In this document: positions 5,748-8,766 of the stretch, one piece after another | How the letters are laid out: each line of letters opens with the position of its first letter | Numbering within the stretch: the stretch's first letter is position 1 | Source of the DNA: a virus | Strand: one strand, 5' to 3' | Length of the DNA stretch: 44,656 nucleotides | IMG/VR virus record: IMGVR_UViG_3300045391_001696 | Location: 1 to 44,656 of that record | Program-made: the position numbers and the translations under genes | The notes under the pieces: model-generated | What the model was told of the DNA's origin: nothing | Seen by the model: the letters and a program-made list of their open reading frames with translations, nothing else | The model's database searches: none

Positions 5748-6181
5748 GCGGTTACAAGGTATTTATTCCCTCGTGGCGTCCCAAGAGCTTAAACAGCCTA
5801 TTCGTTCATTGGGGTAAGGCTGCTCGTCTTAAGAAGGCCGACACTCAAACAGTATGGGCTTATTGCCACCAGATACCCAAGGCAACCACAAAGCGCCTTG
5901 TGCGGGTTAAAATATACCTTACGGGCAGACAGAAGCCCTACGATCAGGATAACTGCTGGAAGAGCCTTATGGACGCTCTGGTGAAGAACGGCCTCTTGGT
6001 CGATGACAGCAACAAATGGGTTGAGACGCTTCCCGTAGAATTCATCAAGCGGGCATTCAGTCCAGGCACAGAGATTTACCTGCAAGATATTGAACCGCTT
6101 CCCTCGGCAATCGCAGAGGGAGCCGAGCACGATTACGTTACGCGCCCGTCTAAGCCAGTTGTTGTTATGGAGGAATTATGA
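5744..6181 (+). CDS. rusA: RusA-family Holliday junction resolvase
   Basis: PYDQDNCWKSLMDALVKNGLLVDDS matches the RusA D-x-DN...K...D-x-L...DD signature; ATGA overlap with the upstream gene. Confidence 0.7.
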   Translation: MSGYKVFIPSWRPKSLNSLFVHWGKAARLKKADTQTVWAYCHQIPKATTKRLVRVKIYLTGRQKPYDQDNCWKSLMDALVKNGLLVDDSNKWVETLPVEFIKRAFSPGTEIYLQDIEPLPSAIAEGAEHDYVTRPSKPVVVMEEL

Positions 6182-6573
6182 GCTTCGAGCGCATTTACTC
6201 CTACATCATATCTAGGGTTCCATTCCTCGGGGCTAATGCCAAAAACCCCTCTATCATAACCGAGTGGCTTGCTTCCGGCTACGACACCGACAAAGACATC
6301 ATTCCTGCCGTTGATTTCGTGTGCAAGAGGGGCGTGAACACCATTAAGGGATTCGGCTGGTTTACTGGAGCTATTCGCTGGCAGCATCAAAAGCGCATCG
6401 AAGCTCAATATAAGCCGAAAGAAAAAACCCAGGCAGAAGCAGATGCCATAAGGGCTAATAACATTCGCTGGCACAAAGACAGGGGAATCACCTCAACCAA
6501 GGTTGGCCCGCAGGACTTCGCTTGGCTTGAGCAATACGAAAGGAAAAAAGAAAACGGCCTGATGAACGGTTAG
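6178..6573 (+). CDS. hypothetical protein (131 aa), last early-right gene
   Basis: ORF track; ATGA overlap with rusA. Confidence 0.55.
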   Translation: MSFERIYSYIISRVPFLGANAKNPSIITEWLASGYDTDKDIIPAVDFVCKRGVNTIKGFGWFTGAIRWQHQKRIEAQYKPKEKTQAEADAIRANNIRWHKDRGITSTKVGPQDFAWLEQYERKKENGLMNG

Positions 6574-6589
6574 AAATAAAACGGCTGCG

Positions 6590-7080
6590 TCAGGCGGCAT
6601 AGTGGCATTACAGCGGGTTCGGCAAAGTGCCAAAGTGGATGACTCAGGGGTAACCCGAAGGAACCACTTCCGAGCGTATGATTGCGTAAAAGTTCCTTGG
6701 CCTCAATGGAATCAATACCAAGTGAGGCATGTCTAAGCGGTAGCGGCTCCAGTGGGGCATATCCCGGCATGAGTCTAAATACAGGCTAATCCCTGTAGGT
6801 AGACTCTCTATGCCATCACAATAGCTCACCAGTGAAGCATATACCACTTAAGTAAGTAATAAGCACTAGATGAACATTAACTTTAATATTACGCGGCATT
6901 TTTAGAATGATTGATTTTATGGCCAGAGGGGTGATGGGGGTTTGCAAACAGTTTCTTCTCTGGCCGCCACAATAGCCCAGCAAGCAGGTGGCGTAATGCA
7001 AATAACGGCTTGCAGCAGGAGCATGGGGCGACCACATAAAGCGCTCTTTACCCGCAAGGGCTATGTGATCCTGCATAGGG
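6590..7080 (+). ncRNA. candidate structured RNA or late regulatory leader (boundaries and strand uncertain)
   Basis: No credible ORF. Nested helices at 6766-6814, 6921-6965, 6965-6993 and 7015-7074. The last contains CCC-GCAA-GGG, a GNRA tetraloop only in plus orientation. Confidence 0.3.
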
Positions 7081-7157
7081 GTAAATAGATTCGGATGCGG
7101 AATGAATGTAAAATGTTATTGCAAGCAATAGTTAATACAAGCGTTTAGGAGCTAAAC

Positions 7158-7427
7158 TTGGCAAGCAGGATAACCCCGTCTAAAGGCTCAAAGCCAGATA
7201 AGTTATGGCGAGATGCAATTGCCGTTGCGGTGCATAGGGCAATTAATGAGCAGGAAAAGAAAAACAATCTTGCTGCATTGGCGGAGAAGCTAGTTGAAAA
7301 AGGATTATCCGGCGATGTAATGGCGCTTAAGGAAATAGGCGACAGACTTGATGGCAAAGCTTCACAAGATATTAACGCAAAGCTCGCTGGAGCGGTTACT
7401 GTGAATGGCAAGGTAGAGTTTGTCTGA
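7158..7427 (+). CDS. terS: putative small terminase subunit (89 aa)
   Basis: Position immediately upstream of and overlapping terL. TTG start with AGGAG 6 nt upstream and an in-frame TAG just before. Motif ALKEIGDRLDGK is, from memory, seen in small phage DNA-binding/terS-like proteins. Confidence 0.5.
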   Translation: MASRITPSKGSKPDKLWRDAIAVAVHRAINEQEKKNNLAALAEKLVEKGLSGDVMALKEIGDRLDGKASQDINAKLAGAVTVNGKVEFV

Positions 7428-8766
7428 TTACGAGATAAACTTCAACGCCAAGATTCCCAAAGTATTTAAGAGCCTATTTAAGCCAAAACGCTATAAGATT
7501 TATTATGGCGGGCGAGGAGGAGCTAAATCATGGGGATTCGCAGATGCGTTGCTTATTATGGGCACACAGAAGCCATTACGCATATTATGCGCCCGTGAAC
7601 TACAGAAATCCATTGCCGACTCGGTACACAAGCTCCTAAGCGATCAGATAGATAAGCTTGGGCTGCACGAGTTCTACGAGATCCAAAAGACCACAATCCT
7701 TGGTATTAATGGCACCGAGTTCCTGTTCAATGGACTAAAGCATAATGCGCGTGAGATTAAATCCACTGAAGGCATTGATATATGCTGGGTGGAGGAGGCA
7801 GAAAACGTATCTGATGCAAGTTGGGAATTACTTATACCAACGGTACGTAAAGAGGGTTCTGAAATATGGATTAGCTTTAACACTAAACAGCCAACAGACG
7901 CCACATATCGGCGCTTTATATTTGAAGCCGATGATGATTCGATCATTCAAAAGGTATCTTATAAAGACAATCCGTTCTTTCCTGACGTTTTGGAACGAGA
8001 ACGATTAAGGCTTAAGGCCAAAGACCCTAAAGCCTATGAGCATGTATGGGAGGGTGAATTCGATACGCGTTTTTCTGGCGCTGTCTATGCCAAGTGGATG
8101 GCAGAGCTTAAGGATAAGGGGCGCATTACCGATAGGGTAAAACACGATCCTGATTACCCCGTATCGACGCTATGGGATTTGGGCTTTGGCGATACATGCA
8201 CACAATGGTTCTTCCAGGAGGGACCGGGTGAGGTGCTTATAATCGATTACTACGAGAACAATAACGAAGGTATTGGGCATTATTGCGAGATGCTGCAATC
8301 AAAGCCTTATAAATACCGCGCCCATTACGTGCCGCAAGACGCTGGCAAGAAGCTTATGGAAGCCAGCGGCAGATCAATCGTTGAGCAGGCTTGGCAAGAT
8401 TACAAAGTTAAGATGACGATTATCCCGGAGACAACCCACGCTAACCGGCATGAAGGATTGCGTAAGGTGCTTCCATATTGCTGGTTCAATAGCGACACAT
8501 GCGCTGCTGGCATTGAGTCGTTAATGGCATACCATTACGAATACGATGAGGATTTACAGATATTCAAGAAGATACCTGTGCATGACTGGTCAAGCCATGC
8601 TTCATCCGCCCTAGAGCTATTGCCAAGCGTGTGGAGAGGAAGAACGCCGATTACCGTAGAGGACATGAAAAACCAAGCCATACGTAACGAGTTCTTTAGA
8701 AAGCGCAGGAAGAATAAACTTGAACAGGAAGACCCATACAGGATTAAGCCGATGGGTAAGAGATGA
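7420..8766 (+). CDS. terL: terminase large subunit (PBSX/Terminase_3-like)
   Basis: Walker A YYGGRGGAKS, Walker B-like ICWVEEAE, and a C-terminal nuclease region. A TTG start is the only option in frame. Confidence 0.9.
   Translation: MSDYEINFNAKIPKVFKSLFKPKRYKIYYGGRGGAKSWGFADALLIMGTQKPLRILCARELQKSIADSVHKLLSDQIDKLGLHEFYEIQKTTILGINGTEFLFNGLKHNAREIKSTEGIDICWVEEAENVSDASWELLIPTVRKEGSEIWISFNTKQPTDATYRRFIFEADDDSIIQKVSYKDNPFFPDVLERERLRLKAKDPKAYEHVWEGEFDTRFSGAVYAKWMAELKDKGRITDRVKHDPDYPVSTLWDLGFGDTCTQWFFQEGPGEVLIIDYYENNNEGIGHYCEMLQSKPYKYRAHYVPQDAGKKLMEASGRSIVEQAWQDYKVKMTIIPETTHANRHEGLRKVLPYCWFNSDTCAAGIESLMAYHYEYDEDLQIFKKIPVHDWSSHASSALELLPSVWRGRTPITVEDMKNQAIRNEFFRKRRKNKLEQEDPYRIKPMGKR

Follow-up and report, generated by a model that had tools for sequence, protein, structure and literature searches.

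A probable cis-acting, pseudoknotted leader RNA between the early and packaging genes of an uncultivated temperate phage

The window analyzed here, IMGVR_UViG_3300045391_001696, is a whole metagenomic contig of 44,656 nucleotides (nt) from a temperate phage encoding an integrase, an Erf recombinase, and a methylase. Coordinates refer to this window unless a locus label is given; L-numbers are labels of the compared loci or contigs, and P-numbers designate proteins of one family. The larger open reading frames (ORFs) from about 4937 to about 33000 are all on the + strand, and include in this order a cro-like gene, a 63-amino-acid (aa) ORF, a Ref/HNH-like gene, RusA, an ORF for a 131-aa protein (6178-6573), a gap (6574-7157), a small terminase-like gene (terS), and a Terminase_3 large terminase gene (TerL). 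An earlier note on this DNA had proposed the whole gap, in which it saw no credible protein, as a candidate structured RNA, with a GNRA loop only if the + strand is transcribed. The gap does hold only short ORFs, of 35-48 aa on the + strand and 66-86 aa on the antisense strand, none of which matched Pfam or PHROGs. However, the boundaries of the element proved to be different, as its start is at 6557, in the final codons of the upstream ORF, and its end near 6865. That the interval from 6557 to about 6865 encodes on the + strand a structured RNA of about 300 nt is strongly supported by covariation in about eight lineages, whereas the remainder of the gap (6870-7157) has no homolog and folds at chance level.

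The best-supported part of this RNA is its 5′ domain (6557-6740), which was absent from the earlier note. The 5′ module comprises helices P0, P1, and P2, a pseudoknot formed by helices PKa and PKb around the loop L1 (GAUGACUCA) and a GNRA hairpin, and helix P5. Hairpin P0 pairs GCCUGA (6557-6562) with UCAGGC (6590-6595), and its loop carries a conserved CGG...ACGGCUGC box together with the stop codon of the upstream ORF (6571-6573). A helix of 6 base pairs (bp) is found at the same place, with a different sequence, in eight lineages; all six positions are compensatory and no cell is unpaired in a table compiled by hand, in which the helices were registered by their conserved flanks. P1 (GGCAU 6596-6600 with AUGUC 6729-6733), proposed by eye as the closing helix of the multi-helix domain, is the weakest helix and stands outside the statistics, with 3-5 bp around a GCA/UGC core in most lineages and an unclear situation in L123. 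P2 (GGCAUU 6604-6609 with AGUGCC 6626-6631) is a hairpin with a conserved apical part (ACAGCGGGUUCGGCAA), compensatory at four of its six positions across the eight lineages of the hand table. PKa (AGUG 6634-6637 with CACU 6665-6668) encloses L1 (6638-6646) and hairpin P3, and it crosses PKb (AAGGAAC 6658-6664 with GUUCCUU 6692-6698), which spans a variable hairpin region (6669-6691). Six helices were also counted, as a check on the hand table, in A11, a sequence-only MAFFT alignment of seven sequences. In this alignment PKa (columns 92-95/127-130) and PKb (columns 120-126/173-179) are both 100% paired; two of the four PKa pairs are changed on both sides (AU, GC, CG, GU; AU, UA), as are four of the seven PKb pairs. 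In the hand table, one PKb position is G-C, A-U, or U-A depending on the lineage. Since PKa and PKb cross and are both fully paired with covariation, the fold contains a pseudoknot. The enclosed P3 (GGG 6647-6649 with CCC 6654-6656) is capped by GUAA (6650-6653), and its stem is distinct in each lineage (GGG/CCC, CAC/GUG, ACC/GGU, CGC/GCG, and others), with a GNRA loop in six of the eight. This GUAA is the conserved GNRA loop of the region; the GCAA loop on which the earlier note had built its GNRA argument lies in an unconserved stretch. P5 (GCCUCA 6700-6705 with UGAGGC 6723-6728), which has an additional inner helix, shows five of six pairs changed on both sides and 95% of cells paired in A11, and is followed by the junction UAAGCGG (6734-6740), of which UAAGCG is invariant in the same alignment.

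The 3′ module consists of a long bulged hairpin, P6, between two small look-alike hairpins. The first of these, P5b (GCUCC 6746-6750 with GGGGC 6754-6758), was recognized by eye as a hairpin with a different stem in nearly every lineage, ambiguous in L018, that resembles the hairpin following P6 in the same lineage. P6 (6766-6814) has a GGCAU/AUGCC base, a 3-nt UCU bulge, a GAGUCUA/UAGACUC middle helix, tandem A·G mismatches, and a UACAGG/CCUGUA top. A covariance model of the 50-nt P6 (R1) scores 48 bits on the window copy and 77 bits on that of L112. Its base and middle helices are 89-90% paired in A11 with four double changes, and its top helix is different in every lineage of the hand table. 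The 3′ tail (6815-6863) is composed of AUCACAA, a weak hairpin, and UAAGUAAGUAAUAAG (6849-6863), which provides stops in three frames. An exchange of pairing, in which the conserved loop L1 would displace the 3′ strand of P6 from its 5′ strand, is speculative; the alternative helix is possible in all lineages, at −4.7 to −10.2 kcal/mol, and L123 shows a single three-way co-variation, which is no more than suggestive. Look-alike 17-mers (CMAGTGRRGCATRTMYM) occur three times, at 6719-6735, 6749-6765, and 6829-6845, and the small hairpins flanking P6 are alike within a lineage and different between lineages (window, L115, L119, and L123), a pattern suggestive of module duplication or of a pair of sites for a single lineage-specific binder. 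L1 and both P6 strands also contain GANTC sites (GACTC, GAGTC; 6641-6645, 6771-6775, and 6802-6806), the target of CcrM-type methylases; these sites are not kept in L123. Genes for N6_N4 or Dam-type methylases adjoin the gene of the 131-aa protein family in L017 and L119, and a faint GcrA-like gene is present in L123.

Covariation, for which the earlier note had asked, was found in the scored helices between 6557 and about 6865. With only two sequences, RNAalifold gave 13 compensatory pairs out of 52, against 5.3 ± 2.2 in column shuffles (0 of 300 reached 13), and a consensus energy with z = −8.9. In A11, 92.3% of the cells are paired, compared with 34-45% when the partners are slid by 1-3 columns, and 18 of 32 pairs are changed on both sides; none of 500 shuffles reached any of these measures. 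P0 and P2 are out of register in the MAFFT alignment and were therefore scored in the hand table only, which has 37 of 50 positions doubly compensatory and 374 of 388 cells canonical, figures biased towards pairing because the strands were chosen to pair. A protein-coding gene was rejected as an explanation for this conservation, as no frame is kept open across lineages: each + strand frame across the RNA has at least two stops in each of six lineages, and no − strand frame is open in all six. A coding frame conserved in relatives, which the earlier note had named as contrary evidence, exists at the place of the 3′ half of the gap, where relatives carry a zinc-ribbon or HNH ORF, but not for the RNA.

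The folding statistics separate the two parts of the gap in the same way. The whole 584-nt gap has a z-score of −1.9 on either strand, with −2.7 for 6578-6822 and −0.43 for 6823-7157. All four helices listed in the earlier note are present; judged by the z-scores per segment, chance is exceeded only by the first, which is P6 (6764-6816, z = −5.9, 0 of 200 shuffles folding as well). The segments around the other three gave z = −2.4 (6917-6968, 3 of 200), −0.75 (6962-6996, 42 of 200), and −1.4 (7012-7077, 19 of 200). P6 belongs to the RNA; the other three helices (6921-6965, 6965-6993, and 7015-7074) fall in a 290-nt stretch with no homolog and chance-level folding. The segment 6823-6920 is unusually unstructured (z = +2.2, 198 of 200 shuffles folding as well). 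The + strand is the preferred folding strand, with a consensus energy of −48.0 (z = −17) against −32.6 (z = −12.7) on the − strand, and the GNRA loops and G·U pairs are located on it. These results bear directly on the version of the earlier note, in which the whole 585 nt, including the 6921-7074 helices, would be one large RNA for processive late-gene read-through, a role comparable with that of HK022 put. Some of the region is indeed a real structured RNA, it lies at the early-to-late boundary, and the genes between 4937 and about 33000 share one strand. Nevertheless, this version is very improbable, as the 290 nt on the 3′ side lack conservation and do not fold better than chance, and searches of the + strand around the element (window, L115, and L122) gave no convincing sigma-70-like promoter or intrinsic terminator, which leaves no promoter immediately upstream and no visible terminator downstream to override. 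In addition, a put RNA is about 70 nt long, folds into two stems, and follows a promoter directly, with terminators further downstream, whereas the present element has about 300 nt.

The relatives of this RNA were reached through the upstream gene. The scan of Rfam proposed in the earlier note returned no match for the window copy at the gathering score, nor at E ≤ 10, in searches with 341 nt and 1.1 kb. Among GenBank phages, nothing was found by blastn with the region, its halves, or the copy of one relative, or by tblastn with two family proteins; the E. coli genomes searched gave no match, and exact-pattern scans with three viral patterns and one metagenome pattern gave no true homolog. A family of 17-mer matches resembling the element (L099-L107) was rejected as the 3′ end of a coding gene, and L108-L110 were rejected as chance matches. 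The entry point was the 131-aa protein, whose sole close relative, P0002 (57% identity), is encoded on two short contigs, on both of which the first 250 nt of the gap recur with about 62% identity. Homologs of the element were then identified directly 3′ of 131-aa family genes in about eight metagenomic or prophage lineages (nhmmer E values from 1e-13 to 1e-68), comprising L017/018, L114, L115-117/127/128, L119-121/113/129, L124, L123, and L122, the last being a prophage in an NCBI genome (host GCA_021732785.1). The family proteins encoded beside the RNA homologs share 24-57% identity with the 131-aa protein, and every full-length RNA copy is preceded by a gene of this family. On these sequence comparisons, the element is an uncatalogued RNA family of uncultivated temperate phages and prophages, and the family is not in Rfam as such.

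Neither of the routes through the terminase genes led to the element, which is relevant to another option of the earlier note, that the gap is the pac region. As a pac or cos site bound by the small terminase and acting as DNA, the element would be well placed upstream of terS, where pac sites usually lie in phages with Terminase_3-type enzymes, and direct repeats are present. However, the phages reached through TerL (L001-L003, with TerL 82%, 73%, and 61% identical) have neither the gap nor the element, and none of 80 fetched loci with terS relatives carries the RNA. L122 has the element beside another terminase type (Terminase_2 and Terminase_6), one or two genes stand between element and terS in the relatives, and strand-asymmetric pairing with compensatory changes would be unexpected for a duplex DNA site. 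Because the element tracks the upstream gene and not the terminase type, a packaging site is disfavored, and we regard it as having little chance of being correct.

The upstream gene (6178-6573, + strand) encodes a 131-aa protein from a family of 39 representatives at E ≤ 1e-3 in a full HMMER scan, and the protein ends at the normal C-terminus of the family in all members. A group I or group II intron was rejected, given this normal C-terminus and the lack of any intron model match at E ≤ 10. No match to the 131-aa protein was found in Pfam, PHROGs, or the sequences of the PDB. Its AlphaFold2 model is all-helical with a predicted local distance difference test (pLDDT) score of 87.6, and Foldseek searches of two AlphaFold models against the PDB and BFVD gave no fold match at E ≤ 0.001. 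One member of the family, P0034, is labelled "ribosomal protein S16" in its source, which looks like a mis-annotation. The position of the gene among RusA, VRR-NUC, and methylase genes is, by analogy, that of a late regulator. The 131-aa domain is also the C-terminal part of 280-320-aa proteins with DUF1376, HTH_36, or Phage_rep_org_N N-termini (P0018, P0029, and P0032). These fusions hint at a connection with helicase loading or the initiation of replication, and they keep a replication-related reading alive, in which the element would work with the 131-aa protein at a replication origin, either as a priming or activating transcript or as an initiation signal in + strand single-stranded DNA. 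Consistent with this possibility, one family member matches a DnaD-like loader PHROG, the best fold match, itself non-significant, is the lambda P loader, and no recognizable replication gene was found elsewhere in the window among those tested; the three 17-nt look-alike repeats (6719, 6749, and 6829) are also followed by the AT-rich, unstructured stretch at 6823-6920. An origin element is nonetheless improbable. The gene is at the end of a nin-like region (RusA, VRR-NUC, and methylases) and not among replication genes, the AT-rich stretch is unconserved, the repeats are themselves co-varying hairpins, the fold matches are far from significant, and the pseudoknot, GNRA loops, and a conserved G·U pair suit an RNA better than an iteron array.

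The boundaries of the RNA were compared among lineages on both sides. In the window, P0 overlaps the end of the 131-aa ORF, its 5′ strand being contained in the final codons and its loop holding the stop codon; elsewhere, in five lineages, this hairpin starts 2-10 nt 3′ of the stop codon. Between the family gene and the RNA, the GC-rich lineages L122, L123, and L125 carry an additional conserved stretch of about 170-260 nt (L122 3390-3555, L123 3376-3545, and L125 1131-1390), with an A run, a GC-rich nested hairpin, and then CTTGAA, GCCAAGCRTCTG, and CTGCCACATTT boxes, which may be a promoter region or further RNA. The order in the lineages is nuclease or methylase genes, family gene, RNA, and next ORF, and 3′ of P6 come the small hairpin, stop codons, a ribosome-binding site, and ATG. 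A UAAGUAAG-type stop block in all three frames is found in six of the seven lineages reaching this point (window, L112, L115, L119, L122, and L124), followed in L112, L115, L119, L122, and L124 by a purine-rich ribosome-binding site and ATG; L123 has UGA codons only, then an AAGG-type site and ATG. In L115, L124, and L128 the product of the next ORF is a zinc-ribbon protein, 63 to about 68 aa long (MNYIYCSNIRHKK..., 63 aa, in L115 and L128); in L122 it is a 150-aa HNH endonuclease (Pfam HNH, 1.8e-8), the N-terminus of which aligns with the zinc-ribbon ORF (E = 5e-15). The ORF is DUF968-like in L123, and L119 has a 6-codon mini-ORF and then a Dam methylase gene. The earlier placement of the region between early-right and terS genes agrees with these loci, in which the RNA lies 3′ of early-right-type genes, with terminase genes downstream seen only in the window, L122, and L128.

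At the spot of the zinc-ribbon or HNH gene of the relatives, the window has an 11-codon + strand ORF (MNINFNITRHF, 6870-6905), a match made by eye, which is probably a remnant of that gene; tblastn of 6860-7157 with all downstream ORFs of the relatives gave only noise. For the approximately 250 nt after this ORF, neither nucleotide nor translated comparison with the related loci gave a match, and they form an unconserved spacer (6906-7157) that holds the other three helices of the earlier note and ends in the ribosome-binding site of terS. As judged from these comparisons, the 290 nt at 6870-7157 are not part of the RNA and are the place where the downstream gene would have been lost.

The 3′ module is also found by itself, in L111/112, which came from a metagenome pattern scan; there it precedes an ORF, and both the 5′ domain and the family gene are missing. 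All of its parts, from the junction and small hairpin through P6 and the second hairpin to the stop block and ribosome-binding site, are present at 4684-4800 of L112 (and in L111); L112 is a GC-rich soil contig with a Terminase_2-like fragment about 1.6 kb downstream (6412-6621). In T4-like phages, structured leaders delay the translation of free-standing or intron-borne homing endonuclease genes. The 3′ module resembles these leaders in that it immediately precedes the ribosome-binding site of a small ORF of the HNH or zinc-ribbon type and travels with that ORF type into an unrelated context in L111/112. However, the lower stem and bulge of P6 are conserved in sequence, and the window keeps P6 without the ORF; an occlusion of the ribosome-binding site by P6 would be hypothetical.

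Taken as a whole, the RNA at 6557 to about 6865 is probably a cis-acting intercistronic leader of about 300 nt at the early-to-packaging boundary. Its 5′ end is at, or inside, the final codons of the upstream gene and has no promoter-like site in front; the RNA is therefore probably part of the early-right operon transcript, with which it would be co-transcribed. It would end in the three-frame stops, after which come a ribosome-binding site and the gene that opens the packaging block, and such a leader could set transcription, RNA stability, or translation on passing from the early genes into HNH, terS, and TerL. Because the 5′ module travels with the 131-aa protein, this protein is the most economical candidate for a binding partner, although its binding to the 5′ module is speculative. 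The 3′ module may control the translation of the downstream zinc-ribbon or HNH gene, since it travels with that gene.

Several observations weigh against this interpretation. The RNA is known here from the comparison of DNA sequences alone, its family is small (about eight lineages), and the hand table carries the bias noted above. The partner role of the 131-aa protein is drawn only from co-occurrence, its domain is also present in replication-organizer-like proteins, and one family member, in L118, has neither a gap nor the RNA 3′ of its gene. In L122, L123, and L125 the extra segment weakens a strict coupling to the upstream stop codon. As no terminator was seen, a mechanism of termination or antitermination would have no visible terminator to act on, and the window retains the 3′ module although the gene presumably controlled by it is lost.

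The genomic place of the element, after RusA/nin-type genes and before the late genes, is that of lambda Q, qut, and tR′ and of HK022 put, and a small gene stands at the place of Q. However, the upstream protein matches no Q family, nor any other Pfam or PHROG family, and has no significant fold match; no promoter-like site or terminator was detected near the RNA, which exceeds put or the qut region several-fold in size. ROOL, GOLLD, and the HEARO/IscB omega RNA are likewise sizeable multi-helix noncoding RNAs (ncRNAs) associated with phages or with HNH proteins, but the present RNA matches none of them in Rfam at E ≤ 10, tRNA and tmRNA genes are absent from the window, and the downstream HNH protein of L122 is a 150-aa enzyme and not IscB. 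No match to known riboswitch classes was found in Rfam.

The closest catalogued RNA is RF02932 (Betaproteobacteria-1), which is the best sub-threshold Rfam match in L123 (24.7 bits) and L119 (17.1 bits), against a gathering score of 49.4; neither these two loci nor the window copy, which has no match at E ≤ 10, reach membership at that score. The alignments cover P0 (model positions 1-39) and P2 (44-76) in the same register in L123 and L119. The first hairpin of RF02932, with its CGG...ACGNCAGC loop, corresponds to P0 and is followed by an A/U-rich junction, and the second, CUGNGGG...GAAA, corresponds to P2 and is followed by GG(A)UGGC, corresponding to the start of L1. By eye only, GAACGG...ACGGCUGC and ACAGCGGG...GCAAAG of the window copy can be set against CGG...ACGGCAGC and CUGUGGG...UGAAA of RF02932. 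The third hairpin of the model (89-116) differs, with its stem positions deleted in L123 and positions 81-116 covered only by an unaligned 36-nt block in L119; L1, P3, and the pseudoknot occupy its place, and the present family runs about 200 nt further (pseudoknot, P5, and P6) than the 120-nt model. This similarity is read as a distant kinship of the 5′ third of the RNA and not as membership. The Betaproteobacteria-1 motif comes from Weinberg et al. (2017, PMC5737381), where it is not discussed in the main text and no function is described there.

Rfam files this partly similar RF02932 as "Gene; sRNA", which is one of the points in favor of a stable trans-acting ncRNA cut from the operon transcript, acting, for example, on a host factor or defense system, as decoy or sponge, or as the RNA subunit in a particle with the 131-aa protein. 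The compact pseudoknotted fold with GNRA and conserved loops, larger than typical cis leaders, would also suit such a molecule, as would the intact state of the RNA in the window despite the loss of the adjacent downstream ORF. Even so, this alternative seems rather unlikely, as neither an own promoter nor an own terminator was detected, and the element keeps a fixed position and orientation, in line with the operon and abutting the stop and start codons of its neighbors.

If the RNA is a cis-acting leader, a more specific proposal can be made at a clearly lower level of confidence. The 131-aa protein and the pseudoknotted RNA might form an undescribed early-to-late switch in temperate phages that have no Q-type regulator, a doubtful but explicit model. 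Being the final product of the early operon, the protein would attach to the RNA starting at the stop codon of its own gene. The RNA would thereby be remodelled, for instance through a swap of L1 and P6 pairing, and in its new form it would license the expression of HNH, terS, and TerL. The timing of late and packaging functions is understood in a handful of model phages (Q, Ogr, RinA, and put), and to our knowledge most environmental temperate phages have no recognizable late regulator. A covarying, pseudoknotted RNA of about 300 nt at the early-to-packaging boundary, co-inherited with one protein family, is thus a testable candidate for another solution to this timing. In addition, RF02932 gains a genomic context, a 3′ extension, and a candidate protein partner. 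An RNA family model could also remove spurious ORF calls, since hypothetical ORFs have been called on the RNA itself in public assemblies (L018 912-1007 on the − strand; L124 785-991 and 1013-1216 on the + strand).

Downstream of the gap, the small terminase-like gene (7158-7427, + strand) has a weak match to DUF5681, starts with TTG, and is preceded by an AGGAG site. The large terminase gene (7420-8766, + strand; Terminase_3, 9e-44) also starts with TTG, and shares its first 8 nt (7420-7427) with the 3′ end of the preceding terS-like ORF. The ends of the contig (1-160 and 44434-44656) have a 60-nt exact repeat in common, which lies within a 27-nt tandem repeat, GACGATGCAGCC(G/T)TGCTGGAGT(C/T)GCCA, and the apparent circular closure of the contig is located inside this repetitive coding-like array.

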